Source: Anaerolineales bacterium
GTDB taxonomy: Bacteria > Chloroflexota > Anaerolineae > Anaerolineales > UBA4823
Reading direction: 5' to 3'
DNA: 64,000 nucleotides
Assembly: GCA_025057645.1 (NCBI GenBank)
Contig: JANXBJ010000011.1
Coordinates: 24,028-88,027 of the forward strand
Position 1 is the first letter of the stretch. Every line of letters starts with the position of its first letter. The notes beneath the pieces are model-generated. The model worked only from the letters and a program-made list of their open reading frames with translations. It did no database searches and had not been told where the DNA came from. Of this stretch, positions 913 to 10,802 are shown piece after piece. The position numbers were made by a program, and so were the translations under genes.

Positions 913-1818
913 ATGGACATCTCGAGCCAACCGAAGATCGTTGGTATTCGCTTTCACAAGGTCGGAAAGGTTTATCACTTTGATGCAAGTACCTGTCCGG
1001 AGATCCAAGTTGGAGATTTTGCCGTGGTGGAGACCAGCCGGGGAAGGCAAGTGGGACAGGTGGTTACCTACATCTCCGATCCGCCCCTACCCCCCGAAGG
1101 GGTCTGGAAGACCGTTCAGCGCAAGGCTACTCCCAGAGATTTGGTTTTACGTCAGCTTTACATCCGCAAAGAGCATGAGGTTGTCGTTCAATGTCGCGAG
1201 AAAGCCAAGGAGTTGGGCTATCAGGGCTTGAAAATTGCGGGGGCGGAATTTAGCTTTGATGGCGACAAACTGACGATTTTTTACAGCAGTGAGGGAGAGG
1301 GCAAAGTTGACTTGAAGCGCCTGCGCAACGCCGTGCAACGCTTATATCCAAAAGTGAATATCGAATGGCGTCAGATAGGACCGCGGGACGTTGCCAAACT
1401 GATGGGAGGGCTGGGGGCCTGCGGGCTTGAAAACCGCTGTTGCTCTCAGTTTCTAACAGAGTTCAGTCCGATCTCGATCAAAATGGCAAAAGAGCAGGGG
1501 ATATCCCTGACGCCAGCCGAGATCACCGGGATGTGCGGCCGCTTGCGCTGTTGTTTGATTTACGAATACGAGCAATATGTGGAGGCGCGCAAGCAGTTGC
1601 CTAAAAAGGGCAAACGAGTTGTCACTCCACAGGGTGAAGGGAAGGTAATAGACGTCTATCCTCTCAAGTTGGCCGTGGTGGTGGAGTTTGCGAGCGGGGT
1701 TCAGCAGGAATACCCGGTTAGCCAAATCCAACCTTGGGAGGAGCTGGAGGCCTTGAAGAGAAAAGCCCAATCACCTTGTGAATCGGGGAAGAATGGCGGC
1801 TGTAGTTGTGGGAAATGA
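913..1818 (+). CDS. PSP1 C-terminal domain protein (YaaT/RicT-like)
   Basis: N-terminus 'VGIRFHKVGKVYHFD' and Cys-rich 'ACGLENRCCSQFL...MCGRLRCCLIYE' match the PSP1/YaaT pattern. Confidence 0.75.
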   Translation: MDISSQPKIVGIRFHKVGKVYHFDASTCPEIQVGDFAVVETSRGRQVGQVVTYISDPPLPPEGVWKTVQRKATPRDLVLRQLYIRKEHEVVVQCREKAKELGYQGLKIAGAEFSFDGDKLTIFYSSEGEGKVDLKRLRNAVQRLYPKVNIEWRQIGPRDVAKLMGGLGACGLENRCCSQFLTEFSPISIKMAKEQGISLTPAEITGMCGRLRCCLIYEYEQYVEARKQLPKKGKRVVTPQGEGKVIDVYPLKLAVVVEFASGVQQEYPVSQIQPWEELEALKRKAQSPCESGKNGGCSCGK

Positions 1819-2576
1819 GCGCTGAGCATCAACGGCAAGAAGTGAGGGAATTGCTTCAACCTGAGGGCTGGGACGCACCGCAGCGTATCTTAGTGGTTTT
1901 AGCTCACCCCGATGACCCGGAATTTTTCTGCGGAGCGACCCTTGCACGGTGGATTGATGCGGGTCATTTAGTCTCCTACTGTCTGCTCACTTGCGGTGAC
2001 AAGGGAACACACGACCGTCAGATGAGCGCAGAAAAGTTGTGCCGCATTCGTCACGAAGAGCAAGAGCGGGCTGCGGACTTTTTGGGGGTGAGCAAGGTGC
2101 GCTTTTTAGATTTTCCAGATGGCTACTTGGTGGCTGATTTGAAGTTACGCAAAGCGATTACTCGGGTGATTCGCGAGGAAAGGCCAGATGTGGTGCTAAC
2201 CTGTGACCCCCAGTTGCTCTTCGTGGGGGACGAAAGAATTAATCATCCGGATCACCGCGCAGCCGGTCAAGCTTGTATTGATGCCGTTTTCCCAGCTGCG
2301 CGGGCTCACCTTTATTTCCCTGAATTGTTAGAAGAGGGGCTTGAGCCGCATACGGTGCGCGAGCTATGGGTGAGCTTGCCCGTTGAGCCAAATGTCTTTC
2401 TAGATGTGACTCCCCTCTGGGAGCGAAAAATCGAGGCTATTCTCTGTCATAAGAGTCAAATTGTGGATGAAATGGCGTTGAGAGAAAGGATGAAGAATCG
2501 TCTGGCCAGAGGTAGCACTCCAGAACACCCTCGTTATGAAGAAGCTTTTCGCCGCATCTACTTAAGTCAGCGCTAA
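1815..2576 (+). CDS. PIG-L/LmbE family deacetylase
   Basis: 'VLAHPDDPEF' and 'HPDH' metal-binding motifs. The ATG at 1815 overlaps the upstream stop (ATGA). Confidence 0.8.
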   Translation: MSAEHQRQEVRELLQPEGWDAPQRILVVLAHPDDPEFFCGATLARWIDAGHLVSYCLLTCGDKGTHDRQMSAEKLCRIRHEEQERAADFLGVSKVRFLDFPDGYLVADLKLRKAITRVIREERPDVVLTCDPQLLFVGDERINHPDHRAAGQACIDAVFPAARAHLYFPELLEEGLEPHTVRELWVSLPVEPNVFLDVTPLWERKIEAILCHKSQIVDEMALRERMKNRLARGSTPEHPRYEEAFRRIYLSQR

Positions 2577-2701
2577 CGAGAGGGAGTAAGGATGATCCGA
2601 AAAGAGCCTAACGCATGAGAGGGTATTTCTGGGGACAGAGCTGTAGAGGTCTTTCCGGTTTCGTCGAAAAGCTCAGTGAGAGGTCAATGTGGGCGTATTA
2701 G

Positions 2702-4552
2702 ATGAGTGAGGAGCTGAACCTTATGGAGACTCAAGTAAGGGTAGAGCAGCAAGCCGTTATCACCGAGAAAATCGTCAACGATTTTTCGATCACGGTTGCA
2801 ACTGTCAATGGATCGGGTTCTCAAACCTCGAACGCTGCAATTTTGCGGGCTATCTTCAAGATGGGCATCCCTGTTTCGGGCAAGAATATCTTTCCCTCTA
2901 ACATTCAAGGCTTACCGACTTGGTATACCATTCGAGTGAACAAGGATGGGTTTGTAGCCCGAAAAGAGGAAGCGGACATCCTGATCGCCATGAACCCGGC
3001 CACTTTTAGCAAAGATTTGGCTTCGCTTAAGCCAGGGGGGGCCTTTTTCTACGCCGATGACATCCGCCTTCCCATCCCGCGGGACGATGTGGTGGTCTAC
3101 CCCATGCCGGTAAAGCAATTGATCCGCCAAGTGGAGATCCCCTCTTATCTAAGGGACTATGTGGCCAACATGGTGTATGTGGGGGTTTTAGCTCAAATGA
3201 TCGGCATTGAGCTCGAGAAGATTCGCCAGGCTCTCGAGTTCCACTTCAAGGGCAAGGCCAAGCCCGTGGAAATTAACTTTAGTGTGGTCTCACTGGCGGC
3301 GGAGTGGGCAAGGGAAAATCTTGAAAAAAGGGATCCTTACGTTTTAGAGCCAATGAAGGCCACAGAGGGGCTGATTCTTACTGACGGAAACACTGCTGCT
3401 GCTTTGGGAGCAATTTACGGGGGTGTCCAATTCGTTTCCTGGTACCCCATCACTCCCGCTACAAGTTTGGCCGAAAATTTGCAGCAGTATCTCCCCAAAT
3501 TGCGCAAGGACCCTGAGACAGGTAAAAACACCTTCGTGGTGGTTCAAGCGGAAGACGAGTCGGCAGCGATCGGGATGGCAGTTGGCGCGGGTTGGGGTGG
3601 TCTAAGAGCCATGAGCTCAACCTCGGGACCGGGCTTAAGCTTGATGACCGAGTACCTAGGTCTTGCTTATTTCGCGGAAGTGCCGGTGGTTGTGTGGGAT
3701 ATTCAGCGCGTTGGACCGAGCACAGGGCTGCCTACCCGCACAGCGCAGGGGGACTTGACCTTTGTCGCCTTTATGGGTCACGGGGATACCCAAAATATCA
3801 TTCTTATGCCCGGTTCCATCAATGAGTGTTTTGAATTTGCTTGGAAGGCCTTTGACCTGGCCGAACAGTTCCAAACCCCAGTGGTCGTGCTCTCCGACCT
3901 GGACTTTGGGATGAATCAGTGGATGGGTAAACCTTTTGAATACCCTGATAAGCCCATGAATCGTGGTAAGGTACTTTGGGAAGAAGATTTGGAGAAACTG
4001 GACGGCAAGTGGGCAAGGTATTTGGATGTTGACGGGGATGGCATTCCTTATCGCACCGTGATCGGAAACCGCCATCCGAGGGCGGCCTACTTCACTCGGG
4101 GAACAGGGCACGATGAATATGCCAATTACTCCGAAGACCCCCACCACTGGCATGCCCTGCTCAACCGCCTAAAGAAAAAATTTGAGACCCTAAAGCCATT
4201 CTTACCTCCACCCGTGGTGGAAACCATGGACGGTTCTAGGATTAATCTGGTGGCCTTTGGTTCGACTGAACCGGCGATCCAAGAGGCCAGAGCGCTCTTG
4301 CGGGCGCAGGGCATAGCTAGCGATTTTACGCGCATTCGGTCCTACCCGTTTACAGATCAGGTGAGCCAAATTTGCTCGGGCTATGATCGCAATTACGTCA
4401 TCGAGCTGAACCGAGATGGGCAGTTGCATCAGCTTCTGCGTATGCATTTCCCGGAGCTAGCGCCTAAATTAATCTCCTATGCCTATACGGATGGGTTACC
4501 TCTAACTGCGAAACAAGTCTATGAGTTTATTCTCTCAAAGGAGGGAGGATGA
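2702..4552 (+). CDS. korA: 2-oxoacid:ferredoxin oxidoreductase, alpha subunit
   Basis: 616 aa with a fused gamma/alpha layout ('GSGSQTSN', 'YPITPAT'). Immediately followed by an overlapping beta subunit gene. Confidence 0.85.
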   Translation: MSEELNLMETQVRVEQQAVITEKIVNDFSITVATVNGSGSQTSNAAILRAIFKMGIPVSGKNIFPSNIQGLPTWYTIRVNKDGFVARKEEADILIAMNPATFSKDLASLKPGGAFFYADDIRLPIPRDDVVVYPMPVKQLIRQVEIPSYLRDYVANMVYVGVLAQMIGIELEKIRQALEFHFKGKAKPVEINFSVVSLAAEWARENLEKRDPYVLEPMKATEGLILTDGNTAAALGAIYGGVQFVSWYPITPATSLAENLQQYLPKLRKDPETGKNTFVVVQAEDESAAIGMAVGAGWGGLRAMSSTSGPGLSLMTEYLGLAYFAEVPVVVWDIQRVGPSTGLPTRTAQGDLTFVAFMGHGDTQNIILMPGSINECFEFAWKAFDLAEQFQTPVVVLSDLDFGMNQWMGKPFEYPDKPMNRGKVLWEEDLEKLDGKWARYLDVDGDGIPYRTVIGNRHPRAAYFTRGTGHDEYANYSEDPHHWHALLNRLKKKFETLKPFLPPPVVETMDGSRINLVAFGSTEPAIQEARALLRAQGIASDFTRIRSYPFTDQVSQICSGYDRNYVIELNRDGQLHQLLRMHFPELAPKLISYAYTDGLPLTAKQVYEFILSKEGG

Positions 4553-5601
4553 GCGAGACAACAGCCTCCACAAACGTCAAGGTCGTGGTTAATGCAATCG
4601 GACTTACCAAAGCGGATTATCGCGGCAATCCTTCCACTCTTTGCCAAGGGTGCGGCCATAATTCGATTTCGAGTCAGATTATCGCAGCCTGTTACGAGTT
4701 GAACCTCTACCCTGAGGAGATTGTCAAGTTCAGCGGGATCGGATGTTCGAGCAAGAGCCCCTTTTATTTCCTCAGCCGGTCTTTTGGGTTCAATGGGTTG
4801 CACGGGCGGATGCCTTCTCTAGCCACTGGAGCTCTATTTGCCGACCATACGTTGCGTGGAATCGGGGTAAGCGGTGATGGTGACACGGCAAGCATTGGGA
4901 TGGGGCAGTTCAAGCACTTGCTGCGACGCAATATGCGTCTGGTGTACATTGTGGAAAATAACGGCGTATATGGTTTGACAAAGGGTCAATTTTCTGCAAC
5001 CGCCGATCGGGGTCTAGAGCTTAAGTCGCATGGCATTAATCCTTACATGCCGATCGACATCGCTTGGGAGGCACTGGTCGGACATGCAACCTTTGTGGCT
5101 CGCTCCTTTGCGGGTGATCCGAAGCAGGTAAAAGAGCTGATCAAAGCAGCGTTGAATCATAATGGAGTAGCAGTTCTGGATATCATTTCGCCCTGTGTAA
5201 CTTTTAACAATGTGGATCACTCCACCCACTCTTACGCATGGGGCAAGGATCACGAGACTGCCCTGCACGAGTTATCCTATGTTCCCAAAGCCGAAGAGAT
5301 TCTACTCGAATACGATGAGGGGGAGACACGCGAAGTACAATTGCACGATGGCTCGGTGATTATCCTCAAGAAACTAGGTCGGGACTACGACCCTACTAAC
5401 CGCGAGGCGGCTATTAAGGTGTTGGAAGAAGCGAATAGCTGTCAGTGTCTGATCACCGGCTTAATCTACATTGATCCCGATCAACCCTCGATGCTGGATA
5501 TCTACCAGTTAACGGAGACTCCATTGAATCGCTTGCGTGAAGATCAACTCCGACCACCTAAAGAGACGCTAGAAAGTCTCAATCGGATGTTTCAAGCCTG
5601 A
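4549..5601 (+). CDS. korB: 2-oxoacid:ferredoxin oxidoreductase, beta (TPP-binding) subunit
   Basis: 'CQGCGHNS' and 'GDGD' TPP motif. SD AGGAGG upstream; ATGA overlap with korA. Confidence 0.85.
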   Translation: MSETTASTNVKVVVNAIGLTKADYRGNPSTLCQGCGHNSISSQIIAACYELNLYPEEIVKFSGIGCSSKSPFYFLSRSFGFNGLHGRMPSLATGALFADHTLRGIGVSGDGDTASIGMGQFKHLLRRNMRLVYIVENNGVYGLTKGQFSATADRGLELKSHGINPYMPIDIAWEALVGHATFVARSFAGDPKQVKELIKAALNHNGVAVLDIISPCVTFNNVDHSTHSYAWGKDHETALHELSYVPKAEEILLEYDEGETREVQLHDGSVIILKKLGRDYDPTNREAAIKVLEEANSCQCLITGLIYIDPDQPSMLDIYQLTETPLNRLREDQLRPPKETLESLNRMFQA

Positions 5602-6491
5602 CGGACCTTGTGCCAGTAGCGGTAGAGCCCGGAGGCGCTCATCCATGTAGGGTTGAGATATGTAAAATAGGGTTGGTAGGCTTGAGGGAGTTGGTTGCGA
5701 CCTTGTTGGTCGAGCCAATGCCTCAGTGCCTCGGTTAGTTCTTCAAGCGAGGGGTTAGAGAGCATTTGCTGTTCCAACCATTCCTCGAGCAGGTCAAGCT
5801 TTATGAGCAACTGATTGAGGTGGTACTCTACGTCGGAATATACGCCAAAATGCGTGGGAGCGATTGCGCAAAGCTCTAGTTCCTGAAGGCGCCTAAGACT
5901 GGCGCGCCATTTGAGGGGGTCGAATTCAGGAGGAGGGGTGGGAAGCTCGATATGTTTCGTGTCCCCGATGCGAATGCCGCCAATGTCTCCCGCAAAGAGC
6001 GTCCCTTCGAAGAGAACCGTGTAGTGATGGTTAGCGTGTCCGGGGGTGTCGAGGACTTGGAACTTGTGACCATCGATGGAGAGGATTTCGTTGTCTTCTG
6101 GTATATGAAGATGGTCCTCCGGTACCGGTTTGATTTCTCCCCAGAGGGTATCCATAAGTTCACCGTAGATGCGGGAGGCGCTTTGGATCAGTTTTTCGGG
6201 GTTAACCAGATGGGGTGCACCCTTGGGGTGAACGTGGATAGTAGCACCTTGCCGGGCAAGCCATCCGACAGAGCCGGCATGATCGAGATGAATGTGCGTA
6301 ATGAAGACATCTTTCACGTCGGAAAGACTGATTCCGCAATCGGTGAGCGCTTTTTGTAGAGCTGGGATGGTTGTAGAAGGGCCTGGCTCAATTAGCACTG
6401 CTTGGTGAGGTAGGCGTATAAGGTAAGAGGCAATAGCTCCCGGATACCCAAAGAAATTGAGATCAATGGTGATAATTTGGGGAGAGGACAT
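5592..6491 (-). CDS. MBL-fold metallo-hydrolase
   Basis: 'THIHLDHAG' (HxHxDH). I prefer the start at 6491 (MSSPQII...), which has GGAG 8 nt upstream, over the longest ORF start at 6515. Confidence 0.75.
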   Translation of the reverse strand: MSSPQIITIDLNFFGYPGAIASYLIRLPHQAVLIEPGPSTTIPALQKALTDCGISLSDVKDVFITHIHLDHAGSVGWLARQGATIHVHPKGAPHLVNPEKLIQSASRIYGELMDTLWGEIKPVPEDHLHIPEDNEILSIDGHKFQVLDTPGHANHHYTVLFEGTLFAGDIGGIRIGDTKHIELPTPPPEFDPLKWRASLRRLQELELCAIAPTHFGVYSDVEYHLNQLLIKLDLLEEWLEQQMLSNPSLEELTEALRHWLDQQGRNQLPQAYQPYFTYLNPTWMSASGLYRYWHKVRQA

Positions 6492-6587
6492 CAGATCGCT
6501 CCGAATGCTTATCATCTTGAGATTTTGTTATCAAACCCCAATATATTGGGAAGTAGTGTTGGTTATCCCCATATATAGGGCTGATGC

Positions 6588-6616
6588 TTGACATTCCCTA
6601 TCATTTGTGGTAAAAT
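6588..6616 (+). promoter_or_regulatory. Sigma-70-type promoter with extended -10, upstream of the small peptide ORF
   Basis: TTGACA (6588-6593), a 17-nt spacer, then TGgTAAAAT with the -10 hexamer at 6611-6616. It lies in an AT-rich intergenic region. An AGGAGG SD precedes the ATG at 6669. Confidence 0.55.
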
Positions 6617-6668
6617 GGAGTAGATTATTCTACAATAATTATAATCCCTTTACTAGGAGGAAGGTAAA

Positions 6669-6884
6669 ATGACACTCGCCCAAGTTGTCTACCAGCTTTC
6701 TACTGACTCCGAGTTTGCTGCTCGGATGCGAACCGATCCGGAAGGCGCCTTGGCCGAAAAGGGACTCCAGCTTAGTAACGAAGAGAAGGCGTTCCTTGCC
6801 TATGGACTGCGGCGTTCTCTTCACGCCGATGGAAGCCCGGTTTCCATCCAAGAAGTTGCCTCCCTATATCTCGGATGGCGCTAA
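6669..6884 (+). CDS. 71-aa peptide, candidate pheromone/RiPP-like precursor (C-terminus ...ASLYLGWR)
   Basis: Strong SD (taggaggaaggtaaaATG) and promoter. The stop overlaps the downstream gene's ATG by 10 nt. The N-terminus 'DSEFAARMRTDPEGALAEKGLQLSNEE' is leader-like. Confidence 0.5.
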   Translation: MTLAQVVYQLSTDSEFAARMRTDPEGALAEKGLQLSNEEKAFLAYGLRRSLHADGSPVSIQEVASLYLGWR

Positions 6885-7918
6885 GCGAGATTGAGTCGCT
6901 TGCCGCCCGAGAAGTTGGCTTAATTTTTCAAGCGGTCCGTTCTTTTCTGAAAAAGTCTTCCATATCGCACAAATATAAAGATGCGCTATGGAAGACTTTT
7001 ATATCTCTCTCCCCGAGTCCGGGTAAGTTATCAAGGGGAAATTTTACGCTTCTTTTACCTCGTCTCTCTTATCAGGCTTGTGGAGGAGAGGGCGAGTTTG
7101 TATCGAAAATCAGCGCCGCCTGGTATTTATTTTACCTGGCAGCCGATATGATGGACAGCATTCAAGATCAGGAGAATAGGGATGAGGGAAGCATAATATC
7201 GGTCGCAGAGGGCCTCAATCTTGCTTCGGGATTTTTCTTTATCGCCAATGCCTTACTAACCGAAGTGCTGAAGACAAAAAACGACTTCCCTGCCCTCTAC
7301 GATGTGATTGGGGCGTTTCACACCCGACTGCTAGAAATGTGCGACGGACAACAACAGGATTTGTGTGCGAAGGAACTTTCACTAGAGGGTTACCTTGATA
7401 TGTTGCGCAAGAAATCCGGCGCATTTTTCTCGCTGGCTTGTTATATCGGGGCAAGGATGGCTTGTGGGAGGCCGGATTGGTGGAAACGTTTCTCGGATTT
7501 CGGTTCTCACTTGGGTGTTGTGATTCAAATCCTGGATGATTTGGAGGATTGGTATAAGTTGCAGGAACTGCAAAACAATGCACAGTCTGTTCTTCCCAAA
7601 ATGGACTGGTATAAAAACTTACCTGCTGTTTATGCGCTCGAAGTTTTACCCAGTAAGGAAAGAAGGGATTTTAGAAGAGCAATTGATAAGGTCGGAAAAG
7701 AGACAAGCGCAGTAAGCGATTACATTGGGTGGGTCAATCGCTCTGGTGCTGCGCTTTTCATCCTCGCATTGATCGGCCGCGAAGTCGGCTATGCAAAGGA
7801 GGCCTTAAGCGAAGAAGCCCTCGTTGCTCAGCCCAAGGAAGACTTGATTCGCATTCTGGAGCTGTTGGTGGGGAAATTGGGAGCTTGTTCAAACGACCCA
7901 ACTCAGCGCGCTCAGTAA
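6875..7918 (+). CDS. Polyprenyl-synthase-fold (isoprenoid synthase superfamily) protein, ComQ-like candidate
   Basis: 'GQQQDL' (GQxxDL), 'KKSGAFF' (KTAxL-like) and 'VIQILDDLED' (second Asp-rich DDxxD) are present. The first Asp-rich motif is atypical ('DMMDSIQD'). Confidence 0.7.
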   Translation: MALSEIESLAAREVGLIFQAVRSFLKKSSISHKYKDALWKTFISLSPSPGKLSRGNFTLLLPRLSYQACGGEGEFVSKISAAWYLFYLAADMMDSIQDQENRDEGSIISVAEGLNLASGFFFIANALLTEVLKTKNDFPALYDVIGAFHTRLLEMCDGQQQDLCAKELSLEGYLDMLRKKSGAFFSLACYIGARMACGRPDWWKRFSDFGSHLGVVIQILDDLEDWYKLQELQNNAQSVLPKMDWYKNLPAVYALEVLPSKERRDFRRAIDKVGKETSAVSDYIGWVNRSGAALFILALIGREVGYAKEALSEEALVAQPKEDLIRILELLVGKLGACSNDPTQRAQ

Positions 7919-7964: not shown

Positions 7965-10802
7965 ATGAAATCTATTCAGCCTTTGCCGCAAATCAATCAG
8001 AGTCTTCCCTTCCTCATCGGGCTGGTGATCTTCGGAGTCATTATGTGGGTTGTCTTCTTGGTGCTCAAGTATCCCGATGATGGGATTCGTGCCCTCTCGG
8101 CGTCTCACCAAGTTCTTGCCGTTGATGAGCAGAGACCGGGAGGTAACCCCTTACAGGTAGGGGATATCCTGCTAGAAGTCGACGGCCAGCTGCTCTCCGG
8201 TCAAAGTGCATGGTATTGGGGAAAACGCCCCGGCGATTATGTCCGCTTTCGCATCCAGAGGGGAGAGAAGATCCTCTCCGTTGCACTTCAGTTGAGCACA
8301 CCGCAACCCTTAGAACTCTTTCGGAGACTCATACCTCTATCCGTCGCGCTGGTCTTTCTGTTCATTGCTCTTGCAGTTGAGGCATTCGCCCCCCGATCTC
8401 CCACGACAAAGATGTTTTTTGGGTTCTTTGTAGCTTCGAGCTTGTTGCTTACCTCAGGACAAGCCTCCGGACTCGGGCCTGTAATTGTGCTCGATTTGTA
8501 TTATTTTTTGTGGTGGATGGTCGGCCCGATCTCGGTACACTTTCATCTTTATTTTCCCCAACAGAGGAGCAGCCCTCAGATAAAGGGCGGCCTAATCCTC
8601 CTCTACGGAATCGGGTTGCTCGGGGGTTTGTTTCACTTAGGCATGGGAACGACGAGACTTCACGAACATGCCTACTTCAGTTTGCTCATTCCCATCTCTC
8701 GCCTGTTTTTGGCCCTATGTATGTTGTTAAACATCTGTTTACTATACTACAATTACCGCACTACGATTAGCCCTGCAGCCAAGGCAAAAATTCGTCTGAT
8801 TTTGCTAGGTGGAGTTTTGGCGGCTACTCCGTTGGTTACCACCTACCTTGTGCCAGAGGTGCTTCTTAATCGTCCGTTCTTGCCTGCATCGGCCATTTTT
8901 TTGTTTCTTTGCTCGCTGCCTTTGGTCTATGGATACGGGGTGTTTCGCTACCGTCTGATTGAAATCGAGCATCACATCAATCGCGGGGTTACCCTGTTAT
9001 TGGTGGTATTCATTTTAGTGGGCATTTACTCGGGGGTATTCTCTCTGGTGACTCGTTTCCTTCCGCGCCAGTACTTATTCGATCCCGCCCTAAATACCCT
9101 GATTATTCTGTTGCTTGCAGCGACCATTTTGCCTATTTCGCGTCGCGTGCAACGCTTTGTCGATACACTCTTTTATGGCGGTTGGTATGACTATCGTTCG
9201 GCTATCCTCCAAATTACGTCCGGTCTGGAGCAGGTCAATGACCTCTCCACTCTCGCCAGAGAAGTAACAAAGCGGTTGGTGAAAACCCTGAGAGTCGCCG
9301 ATGCTTGCATTTTCCTAAGCGACATTTATGGGGATCTTTCGGTGGTTGCGGTAGCACCTGAGGAAGCTGCCGATCAAGCAAACGGAAAGATGGATCGGGC
9401 AGTACTGCCCCGCAGTAGCTTAGAGTTTCTCTTGAAAGTCGGTGAGGAAGAGAGAGAGACGATTGCAAAGGCGCTGGCTCAGGCAAAGCTTTCGCCACAG
9501 GAGTTTCAATTGCTTCGCAGCCCGCAAGCCTATCTTTGGGTGCCAATTCTCAGTCATCAACAAGTGAAGGGCTTGATCGCCTTAGGACCAAAATACGGAG
9601 GGGACGTCTTCAGTGCTGAGGATATGGATATCCTGCGCGTTGTCTCCCGCAATCTCGGGCCTATAATTGAAAACATCCACTTGCTCAACCAGCTACGTCA
9701 ATATGCTGCGGATTTGGAGCTGCGTGTTCAGGAGCGGACGAGTGAATTATTTGAGGCCAAAAGGCGGGTCGAGGCGATTTTGGCGAGTGTGGGCGATGGT
9801 GTAGTGGTTACAAATCTGAGGGGAGAAATTGAGTTGACGAATCAGGCGATGGAAATCCAGACGTCTTACACTCAGGAGGAAATCCTACAGCGAAATTACT
9901 TTGATTGGTTGGCGCTGAGCAATTCTGTGGCAACAATCGAAGCAATCCAGATTTCTCTATCCAGAGGGGACGTGTGGAACGGAGAATTGGTTCACCAGAG
10001 AAAGAACGGGGAGCTCTACGACATTTTAGTGACCATTGCCCCTGTTCGGGATCAAAGCGGCGAAATCATAAACTATGTCGCTACGCAGCGTGACATTACC
10101 TACCGTAAGGAATTAGAGCGCTTGAAAGATATCTTCGTGGCCGATGTCTCTCATGAGCTGCGCACGCCCATCACGAATATTGCGCTCTATCTCGAGTTAC
10201 TTGAGACAGCACCCGAGTACAAAAGAGAGGAGTATATTCAAGTTCTCAAAGAGCAAAGCCGATTGTTGCGTCGCTTAATCGAAGATATCTTGGATTTATC
10301 CCGATTGGCGATTGGGAAGACCCGTAAAATCGAGTTCGAGCCAGTAGACTTGAACCTTCTCATAGAACAGGCTGTGATCGCTTACACCCCGGCTGTTGAG
10401 AAGGCCGGGCTAAAACTTCTCCTGGAAACCGTTCCCAGTGCGAAGGTGCGGGGAGAGCTCCATTACCTCTCACGCGCTCTCCAAAATCTGCTCGGAAATG
10501 CTATCCAGTACACCCCAAAAGGGTGGGTTAGGATAACAAGCCGGCGAGATGGAGAGTGGGTCTGCTTGGAAGTCCAAGACAGCGGCATCGGAATCCCCGA
10601 GGAGGACTTGCCCCATATTTTTGAGCGTTTCTATCGCGGCAAACTCGTGCGTCAGTCAAAAGTGCCCGGTACCGGTTTAGGGTTGGCTATTGTGAAGGAA
10701 ATTGTAGAGCTTCATAACGGTCAGATCGAGGTGGAAAGTGAGGTGGGAAGAGGGAGTGTGTTCCGGATTTATCTACCAGCCTGGATCGATGGAGATCGTT
10801 GA
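7965..10802 (+). CDS. Polytopic (~10 TM) sensor histidine kinase with a PDZ-like outer loop, then GAF-like, PAS, HisKA and HATPase_c regions
   Basis: H-box 'VADVSHELRTPIT', N-box 'LLGNAIQYT', G-boxes 'DSGIGI' and 'GTGLGLAIV'. About 10 hydrophobic segments lie in aa 15-400. The PDZ-like stretch is 'LQVGDILLEVDGQLL...PGDYVRFRIQRGEK'. Confidence 0.85.
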   Translation: MKSIQPLPQINQSLPFLIGLVIFGVIMWVVFLVLKYPDDGIRALSASHQVLAVDEQRPGGNPLQVGDILLEVDGQLLSGQSAWYWGKRPGDYVRFRIQRGEKILSVALQLSTPQPLELFRRLIPLSVALVFLFIALAVEAFAPRSPTTKMFFGFFVASSLLLTSGQASGLGPVIVLDLYYFLWWMVGPISVHFHLYFPQQRSSPQIKGGLILLYGIGLLGGLFHLGMGTTRLHEHAYFSLLIPISRLFLALCMLLNICLLYYNYRTTISPAAKAKIRLILLGGVLAATPLVTTYLVPEVLLNRPFLPASAIFLFLCSLPLVYGYGVFRYRLIEIEHHINRGVTLLLVVFILVGIYSGVFSLVTRFLPRQYLFDPALNTLIILLLAATILPISRRVQRFVDTLFYGGWYDYRSAILQITSGLEQVNDLSTLAREVTKRLVKTLRVADACIFLSDIYGDLSVVAVAPEEAADQANGKMDRAVLPRSSLEFLLKVGEEERETIAKALAQAKLSPQEFQLLRSPQAYLWVPILSHQQVKGLIALGPKYGGDVFSAEDMDILRVVSRNLGPIIENIHLLNQLRQYAADLELRVQERTSELFEAKRRVEAILASVGDGVVVTNLRGEIELTNQAMEIQTSYTQEEILQRNYFDWLALSNSVATIEAIQISLSRGDVWNGELVHQRKNGELYDILVTIAPVRDQSGEIINYVATQRDITYRKELERLKDIFVADVSHELRTPITNIALYLELLETAPEYKREEYIQVLKEQSRLLRRLIEDILDLSRLAIGKTRKIEFEPVDLNLLIEQAVIAYTPAVEKAGLKLLLETVPSAKVRGELHYLSRALQNLLGNAIQYTPKGWVRITSRRDGEWVCLEVQDSGIGIPEEDLPHIFERFYRGKLVRQSKVPGTGLGLAIVKEIVELHNGQIEVESEVGRGSVFRIYLPAWIDGDR

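Follow-up and report, generated by a model that had tools for sequence, protein, structure and literature searches.

A conserved precursor peptide, prenyltransferase-like enzyme and sensor kinase gene unit in Anaerolineae as a candidate tryptophan-prenylated peptide signaling system

We analyzed three consecutive forward-strand genes in a 64,000-nucleotide stretch of DNA from an Anaerolineales bacterium (contig JANXBJ010000011.1; this whole stretch is called the window, and coordinates are counted from its first nucleotide). The first gene, located at positions 6669-6884 and referred to as X, encoded a peptide of 71 amino acids. The second gene (6875-7918), referred to as Q, encoded a 347-residue protein that was similar to trans-isoprenyl-diphosphate synthase enzymes (trans-IDS; PF00348, 61.6 bits) and is proposed below to act as a tryptophan prenyltransferase. 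The third gene (7965-10802) encoded a sensor histidine kinase of 945 amino acids, the proposed receptor, with Pfam matches to PAS, HisKA and HATPase domains and sub-threshold matches to GAF.

The X gene started with the ATG at 6669 and ended with the TAA at 6882-6884. Its product was MTLAQVVYQLSTDSEFAARMRTDPEGALAEKGLQLSNEEKAFLAYGLRRSLHADGSPVSIQEVASLYLGWR, with the C-terminus ...SLYLGWR, where Trp70 (codon 6876-6878) occupied position -2. A Shine-Dalgarno sequence, AGGAGG, was located on the forward strand at 6655-6660, 8 nt upstream of the X start codon, and its AGGAG part was invariant in the alignment of relatives. The start codon of Q (ATG at 6875) was formed by the Gly69 and Trp70 codons of X (GGA-TGG), and the two genes overlapped by 10 nt. 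All of these features, namely the coordinates, the ribosome-binding site with its 8-nt spacing, the position of the Trp and the overlap at 6875, had been described in the original prediction for this locus, and we found each of them in the sequence. The overlap supported translational coupling of X and Q, although the stoichiometric co-translation that had also been suggested read too much into it. It had further been expected that automated annotation would easily miss such a small gene; in fact, X was already called in public records, since an identical 71-residue hypothetical protein was present at NCBI in a metagenome-assembled genome labeled 'Anaerolineales bacterium', and a Logan assembly contained the same locus.

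Upstream of X, we found a putative sigma-70-like promoter on the forward strand (6588-6616) that consisted of TTGACA, a 17-nt spacer and a TG-extended TAAAAT, matching the consensus at 11 of 12 positions. TTGAC and the -10 region were kept in five relatives. Just 5' of the -35 box, in the intergenic region between X and a divergent gene for a metallo-beta-lactamase (MBL)-fold metallohydrolase, there were two copies of a 14-bp palindrome, CCCAATATATTGGG (6537-6550) and CCCCATATATAGGG (6567-6580), which were 30 nt apart from start to start. This palindrome was unique in the window, had 0 matches in 100 shuffles, and was kept in the nearer relatives L002 and L022. The palindromes may be binding sites for a regulator, perhaps for autoinduction. 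A second copy of X or Q was absent from the window, and an Rfam scan detected nothing near X, its sole matches being two distant tRNAs.

Relatives of X were numerous. A word-indexed search identified 21 homologues with 54-82% identity, a metagenome scan identified 113 loci encoding X relatives (the 80 that were fetched are the basis of the linkage counts given below), and an exhaustive profile search with E<=1e-3 identified 124 clusters at the 50%-identity level. Purifying selection in the X frame, which the original prediction had put forward as a check on the gene, was evident from the pairwise codon comparison of eight diverse orthologues: the proportion of synonymous differences (pS) was near saturation (0.5-0.9), while that of nonsynonymous differences (pN) was 0.07-0.4. 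The first 45 codons were more constrained (pN 0.03-0.3) than the tail (pN 0.13-0.69). Thus, X was a real and conserved gene under strong purifying selection. The overlapping frame 6685-6894, which had been considered as an alternative gene, was rejected because it contained 2-6 stops in every relative checked and was open in none of them. Overall, the five frames other than that of X, this one included, had 0-6 stops across the relatives checked, and one antisense frame was open in two of them.

The X peptide consisted of two parts with different behavior. Residues 1-45 (MTLAQVVYQLSTDSEFAARMRTDPEGALAEKGLQLSNEEKAFLAY; 6669-6803, forward strand) were nearly invariant among relatives and resembled leader domains of the NHLP clan. 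The best model was NF038399 ('Os1348 family NHLP clan protein'), for which X scored 39.2 bits (E 5.6e-10) and just missed the cut-off of 40; the same model matched all 17 X relatives tested over their N-terminal 40-45 residues, with the best E-value of 6.2e-11. The NHLP-related model TIGR04509 gave 22.7 bits. On the other hand, the canonical NHLP model TIGR03793 gave only 12.5 bits, far below its cut-off of 50.9, and the Nif11 model TIGR03798 had no match to X at E<=10. Thus, the leader of the Nif11/NHLP type that had been originally predicted stood at the level of the NHLP clan but not as a TIGR03793 or Nif11 leader. A profile of the X family also matched PDB entry 6lk7, an 85-residue chain labeled as nitrile hydratase alpha chain (E 7.9e-6), which, judging from this chain length and the existence of an X-ray study, is probably Os1348 itself. 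Matches of the same profile to nitrile hydratase alpha (1v29, E 0.022) and to an NHLP leader chimera (8tb1, E 0.24) were weaker. The X leader was homologous to the nitrile hydratase alpha-like leader fold, and the profile matches placed it in the Os1348 branch of the NHLP clan rather than with the TIGR03793 or TIGR03798 types. As reported, Os1348 from Pseudomonas sp. Os17, the prototype of the family, was an 85-residue folded dimeric protein with an X-ray structure; its gene was followed by Os1349-1351, for which a role in post-translational modification was predicted, was located upstream of efflux-transporter genes, and was linked to antibiotic activity (PMC7726476).

The remaining residues of X (46-71, ending with ...VSIQEVASLYLGWR; 6804-6884 on the forward strand, including the stop codon) formed a fast-evolving tail or core that contained Trp70, the proposed prenyl acceptor. 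Conservation of the C-terminal Trp had been named as a check in the original prediction, and among the metagenomic loci, each of the 77 distinct peptides with a complete sequence had a Trp in its last three residues. It was located at position -2 in 45 peptides and at position -3 in 21, and the other 11 peptides ended with WW. Moreover, several relatives had multi-core precursors where one leader was followed by three near-identical cores. In L048-L051 (e.g., L050:5001-5297) the precursor was 98 residues long and ended with ...AGMSWYQ-AKGDVTDGMSWYQ-AKGDATDGMSWYQ, so that GMSWYQ occurred three times, while P0064, P0076 (VSLADEKAAAWRG three times) and P0122 likewise had three cores with other sequences. 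These forms belonged to separate branches of the X family, the repetition was confined to the tail, and each repeat ended with the W-x(-x) motif of the single-core type. Since each repeat ended like a single-core C-terminus, the last 5-14 residues were likely the product-forming core, and the repeat structure suggested the release of units with free C-termini. We also observed loci where three to four X genes stood in tandem (L042:2885-3908 and L038:4738-5448), with slightly different tails, such as ...ISRGWM and ...ISRGWK; both contigs ended before the expected position of Q. A more distant set of peptides (P0090-P0181) had the same type of leader with a longer tail and an internal motif PW[FWY]xxQ[FL], as in ...PLWFATQFQN and ...IPWYEAQLG, that was sometimes repeated two or three times.

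The second line of evidence was the linkage of X to the same two partners. Small genes directly upstream of Q homologues had been proposed as a further check, and in 66 of the 67 loci with enough downstream DNA, Q started no more than 200 nt away from the X stop, typically with a gap of -10 to +15 nt. The kinase was the next gene after Q in 30 of 31 loci. In 12 of 18 loci, the kinase was in turn followed by a gene for a response regulator with REC and HD-GYP domains (motif HHERWDGxGYP) that overlapped it or was at most 9 nt away (e.g., L009:12191-13162, L013:9806-10801, L050:9219-10196 and nine other loci). The X-Q-kinase trio was retained where the flanking genes differed. It was also intact at the edge of the family: in the most divergent Q relative, P0054 (28% identity), a 67-residue open reading frame (ORF) ending with ...AGMWWLA overlapped the start of Q, and a kinase with a transmembrane segment (TM1) and a PDZ domain was encoded downstream. 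P0055, a marginal match that was a canonical synthase, had neither a small ORF nor a TM1-PDZ kinase. The sole locus without Q after X was L093 (1133-2314), where a hydrogenase small-subunit-like gene on the opposite strand followed X and the amino-acid composition of the ORFs shifted; we suspected a chimeric contig or a recent rearrangement. In L085, Q was followed by three consecutive ORFs of ~310-340 amino acids instead of a recognizable kinase. Together with the conserved Trp, the selection on X and its leader, this linkage supported the central idea of the original prediction, namely a precursor of the type found in peptides that are synthesized ribosomally and modified after translation (RiPPs) with a Trp-containing core and a co-expressed enzyme. 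The pairing of X with the enzyme encoded by the next gene held up, but Q had not been recognized as ComQ-like and the kinase had not been included in the unit.

The family of Q was small: a word-indexed search returned 33 matches, all of them PF00348 proteins, and none of the NCBIfam equivalog models came near its cut-off for Q. The protein contained a first Asp motif, D94-S-I-Q-D98 (7154-7168), and a second Asp-rich motif, Q218-I-L-D221-D222-L-E-D225 (7526-7549), both on the forward strand. Among 24 family members, D94, D98, G158, Q159, K180-S181-G182, Q218 and D222 were invariant, and D221 was conserved in at least 90%. However, the second Asp of the DDxxD motif was variable, the RRG position was acidic or variable, and the GKxxR of region I was not conserved, while a canonical relative retained HDDIMDEAPLRRG where the Q family had no conserved RRG/GKxxR basic residues. 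In trans-IDS enzymes, the basic residues of region I GKxxR and of the RRG that follows DDxxD bind isopentenyl diphosphate (IPP). At the level of sequence, the loss of these conserved basic IPP-binding motifs of the chain-elongating synthases was the diagnostic feature of Q.

Q was related to ComQ of Bacillus subtilis (BLASTP E 3e-9, 23% identity over 169 amino acids), which itself was a PF00348 protein (50.4 bits). A Q-family profile aligned with ComQ by hhalign with 97.7% probability (E 1.9e-12, 248 columns), and its alignment with a canonical synthase was only a little behind (96.8%, E 2.8e-10). In the indole farnesyltransferase Ord1, D85/D89 hold one Mg2+ ion and Q216/D219 are catalytic (PDB 9V4G; PMC12510300), and the equivalent residues in PalQ are D89/D93 and Q197/D200 (PMC10853753). 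D94-x3-D98 and Q218-x2-D221 of Q corresponded to these positions; since canonical synthases share them, they were compatible with a prenyltransferase role but not diagnostic. The AlphaFold2 model of Q had the all-alpha trans-IDS fold with pLDDT of 90.9. Foldseek placed octaprenyl, geranylgeranyl diphosphate (GGPP) and decaprenyl synthases first (TM ~0.75) and Ord1 at TM 0.68; because all matches were of the trans-IDS type and Ord1 was no closer, the fold could not separate a synthase from a transferase. The NCBI record gave Q a later start, with a product of 256 amino acids (74% of the ORF). We favored the 347-residue form that starts inside X, since its first ~90 residues were conserved in the closest relatives and were modeled with pLDDT of 89-98.

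The kinase began with TM1 and an extracytoplasmic loop of 87 residues that, according to profile matches, was a PDZ domain (residues 35-121; 8067-8327, forward strand). The profile of this loop built from 12 relatives matched the PDZ domains of HtrA/DegP (E 1.7e-9), YlbL, RseP and DegS (E 3.6e-5). PDZ domains of DegS and RseP bind free C-termini of peptides. The loop was followed by approximately nine transmembrane segments predicted from hydropathy (8328-9164, forward strand), a region that was weakly similar to the transmembrane region of ComP (E 0.05). The histidine kinase domain belonged to PF00512 (HisKA, 62 bits), with no match to PF07730 (HisKA_3).

The three genes also shared an unusual pattern of divergence. 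Between the window and locus L002, the flanking genes were 81-92% identical at the protein level (Mrp 91%, PSP1 81%, PIG-L 82%, POR alpha 87%, POR beta 92%, PpsR 86% and nitroreductase 87%). In contrast, the identity was 52% for Q, 53% for the kinase PDZ domain, 69% for the kinase transmembrane region and 69% for the X tail, whereas the cytoplasmic GAF-PAS and kinase parts reached 79% and the X leader 91%. Comparisons with L004 and L033 gave an identical ranking. In Bacillus pherotypes, comQ, comX and the 5' part of comP are polymorphic. By analogy, the local acceleration seen for the modifying enzyme, the peptide's core and the outer portion of the proposed receptor was a pherotype-like signature. 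Such divergence of comQ, comX and 5' comP has been described in Bacillus (PMC4008528, PMC4408185).

Considering these observations together, we judged it more likely than not that X is the precursor of a Trp-prenylated signaling peptide that is made by Q and read by the adjacent kinase. The selection on X, the X-Q-kinase linkage, the homologies, the conserved motifs and the divergence pattern were observed; prenylation, its site, the chain length, cleavage, export and sensing are what we infer from the sequences, and the following scheme is conditional throughout. X would be translated from its own promoter and coupled to Q, and its NHLP-clan leader (approximately residues 1-45) would dock onto Q. 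As a ComQ-like member of the trans-IDS superfamily that presumably lost the IPP site, Q would use its D94/D98 metal site to ionize a C10-C20 allylic prenyl diphosphate, and the indole of Trp70, positioned by Q218/D221, would receive the prenyl group. The residues A89 and A90 (-5 and -4 from D94) are small and would be compatible with a deep pocket, although the chain length was not predictable from them. A protease would then free a C-terminal peptide of ~5-14 residues that ends with W-x or W-x-x and has a free carboxylate. After the lipopeptide leaves the cell, the PDZ domain of the kinase would bind its free C-terminus and the kinase membrane domain its lipid; the role of the peptide reader was assigned to PDZ because such domains bind free C-termini and the kinase loop is a PDZ domain. 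Finally, the kinase would phosphorylate the REC+HD-GYP protein, a putative c-di-GMP phosphodiesterase, where it is encoded adjacently, as in many relatives.

To place this unit among known systems, it was compared directly with the degQ-comQXPA locus of B. subtilis and with palQ-palX-palP loci from Paenibacillus genomes. Similarities to ComQXPA included the precursor, since ComX precursors have 52-73 residues with Trp near the C-terminus (PMC4008528) and X had 71 residues with Trp at -2. The Trp of mature ComX is geranylated or farnesylated at C3 and forms a tricyclic pyrroloindole. In both cases the enzyme was a PF00348 protein, Q being homologous to ComQ, with overlapping or adjacent genes and a comparable context of the first motif (SSDIMDDLED in ComQ, AADMMDSIQD in Q). 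In both cases there was also a multi-TM sensor kinase on the same strand, and the enzyme, tail and sensor evolved fast while the kinase core was conserved. The differences were equally clear. The gene order was X-Q-kinase here but Q-X-P-A in Bacillus, and X had an NHLP-clan leader and no match to PF05952 at E<=1. The Q family kept Q-x-x-D-D-x-x-D, whereas ComQ had QISGDYY without the second Asp-rich motif. The kinase contained HisKA (PF00512) with PDZ, GAF and PAS domains, unlike ComP with its HisKA_3. The regulator ComA consisted of REC and GerE, while the relatives of our unit had REC+HD-GYP, a gene absent from the window. Finally, ComQXPA belonged to Firmicutes and the present loci were of the Chloroflexota type; in the 2014 census, ComQXPA-like loci occurred in Firmicutes only (PMC4008528). 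In the contig L021, which carried the B. subtilis type of locus (1535-3762), comP was called as two overlapping ORFs of 365 and 393 amino acids, suggesting a frameshift in comP of this assembly.

PalP/PalX/PalQ of Paenibacillus alvei resembled our unit in other respects: an NHLP-type precursor, a conserved Trp at the C-terminal end, and an all-alpha enzyme with D-x3-D and Q-x2-D-x3-D-W motifs (QMNDDWADW in PalQ, QILDDLEDW in Q). Prenylation by PalQ is increased by the PalX leader (Miyata et al. 2023, PMC10853753). An adjacent membrane kinase with HisKA and HATPase domains was present as well, but only the kinase core resembled that of PalP (25% identity, E 4e-14), and PalP was encoded on the opposite strand with no PDZ detected. 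PalQ had no Pfam match, in contrast to the clear PF00348 assignment of Q. Membership of Q in the PalQ cluster was rejected (BLASTP E 4.1; hhalign probability of 7%), though both Asp motifs aligned in register, and X gave no alignment with PalX. In the assembly of P. alvei DSM 29 (L014:5905-6288), the palX frame ended with ...DNVRRFSGNPFF... while the published sequence ended with ...DNVRRFFW; this looked like a one-base difference or an assembly error near the 3' end.

Ord1 showed that the trans-IDS fold can be repurposed for indole prenylation with a D-x3-D Mg2+ site and a Gln-Asp dyad. Q matched it in sequence (E 3.3e-6) and, as noted, in fold, but the substrates of Ord1 are free indole or tryptophan, and its pathway is one for small molecules. 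According to a 2026 review, the trans-IDS-like peptide prenyltransferases are ComQ, PalQ and the ChrPC P domain (PMC13290415); in ChrPC, unlike in Q, this domain is joined to a cyclase. As far as the consulted literature goes, neither Ord1 nor ChrPC is associated with an NHLP-type peptide and a kinase. For the output side, a likeness was found in diffusible signal factor (DSF) signaling by RpfC/RpfG, where a sensor kinase and a REC-HD-GYP regulator respond to a fatty-acid signal. The succession of kinase and REC+HD-GYP in the relatives would similarly tie a lipid-bearing signal to c-di-GMP hydrolysis, except that the signal here would be a ribosomal peptide rather than a fatty acid, the kinase architecture was different, and the window contained no HD-GYP gene of this kind. 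Judging from these comparisons, the unit could be likened to both ComQXPA and PalPXQ but was a member of neither. A full-text literature search for a link between ComQ and Anaerolineae or Chloroflexi gave nothing relevant, its one match being an unrelated study of soil and vegetation, although literature beyond its reach may include this cluster.

Several observations weighed against a prenylated signaling peptide. PalQ strictly requires a C-terminal Trp (PMC10853753, PMC13290415), while one or two residues followed the Trp in 66 of the 77 X peptides. Q retained an intact second Asp-rich motif and folded like medium- and long-chain synthases (TM 0.75), and it may have some diphosphate-synthase activity. 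The X leader was conserved beyond what is usual for leaders, being 91% identical to that of L002. No gene for a protease, exporter or response regulator adjoined the unit in the window, and no C39 peptidase or transporter was present among the called genes within ~10 kb or in the related loci. Likewise, the REC+HD-GYP partner had no tblastn match in the 64-kb window. Finally, the loci came from related uncultured Anaerolineae-type contigs, and their counts should not be taken as independent events.

Three other explanations were considered. It could be that the joint product of X and Q is a RiPP natural product with a prenylated Trp, e.g., a surfactant or an antimicrobial that acts on membranes, and that the kinase only regulates the operon or senses something else. 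Among RiPP natural products, NHLP-clan leaders, tandem genes and multi-core precursors are typical features, prenylation confers membrane activity on peptides (PMC13290415), PalP has no demonstrated receptor role (PMC10853753), and the prototype Os1348 was linked to antibiotic activity (PMC7726476). However, genes for immunity, transport or proteolysis did not travel with the unit; its sole invariant partner was a kinase, often accompanied by the HD-GYP regulator, and the divergence of the PDZ domain paralleled that of Q and of the X tail, as would be expected of a ligand-receptor pair. We considered a natural product unlikely on balance, yet the most serious of the three. The conservation of the X N-terminal domain, level with the housekeeping neighbors (91% to L002), was in keeping with the idea that X is an uncleaved small NHLP-fold protein whose prenylated Trp serves as a membrane anchor analogous to CaaX, e.g., in a modulator of the kinase. 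The same can be said of the folded dimeric state reported for Os1348 (PMC7726476), and of the acceptor Trp, which sits 2-3 residues from the C-terminus; with multi-core tails, several anchors would then be possible. This idea was nevertheless improbable, since X had no signal peptide and yet the fast-evolving sensor element was the extracytoplasmic PDZ, the repeats with the single-core W-x-x ending suggested released units, and the characterized relatives ComX and PalX are both cleaved (PMC10853753).

The least probable explanation, to which we gave very little credence, cast Q as a prenyl diphosphate synthase, ordinary or heteromeric, that serves quinone or lipid biosynthesis, with X being its small subunit or an unrelated small protein. 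The PF00348 match, the intact second Asp-rich motif and the proximity of the fold to octaprenyl and GGPP synthases agreed with it, and heteromeric trans-synthases with small subunits are known in general. On the other hand, Q combined a D-x3-D with a variable second position and unconserved GKxxR/RRG, while the canonical relative kept HDDIMDEAPLRRG; its identity of 52% was far from the 81-92% of the housekeeping neighbors, and its linkage to a sensor kinase was strict. In addition, X was unlike the known small subunits in being an NHLP-clan peptide whose tail is hypervariable, whose terminal Trp is universal and which also occurs in multi-core forms.

If X is indeed a signal precursor, a broader proposal may be considered, though only tentatively and with less confidence than the precursor role itself: the unit might be the first peptide-pheromone quorum sensing system in Chloroflexota (Anaerolineae), where a prenyl-Trp peptide C-terminus (W-x or W-x-x) is read by a PDZ domain fused to a kinase and relayed in many lineages to HD-GYP, with pherotypes and with multi-core precursors releasing several copies. 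In this case, the PDZ-histidine kinase would represent a type of receptor that has not been described for the pheromones of bacteria. So far, very few systems, namely ComQ, PalQ and ChrPC, are known in which synthase-like enzymes prenylate a Trp of ribosomal peptides. A large and coherent family in uncultured Anaerolineae would bring this chemistry to a further phylum and supply new enzymes for lipidating peptides at an internal Trp close to the terminus. It would not be a new principle as such; rather, it is a sizeable, uncharacterized family in a phylum without known peptide signaling. Anaerolineae, which are filamentous bacteria, occur abundantly in sediments, hot springs and digesters. For this group, in which no cell-cell signaling is known, the unit would be a concrete candidate that includes a receptor of the PDZ type and is connected to c-di-GMP.

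In the window, the gene after the kinase was ppsR. On the other side, the gene divergent from X (5592-6515, reverse strand) encoded the MBL-fold metallohydrolase mentioned above (PF00753, 83 bits). It was present upstream of X in 34 of 40 loci and absent, for example, in L011, L012 and L050. In NCBIfam the protein had generic MBL matches only, and it was weakly similar to B3 lactamases and quorum-quenching lactonases. Its identity to the L002 counterpart was 75%, indicating faster divergence than that of the housekeeping neighbors.

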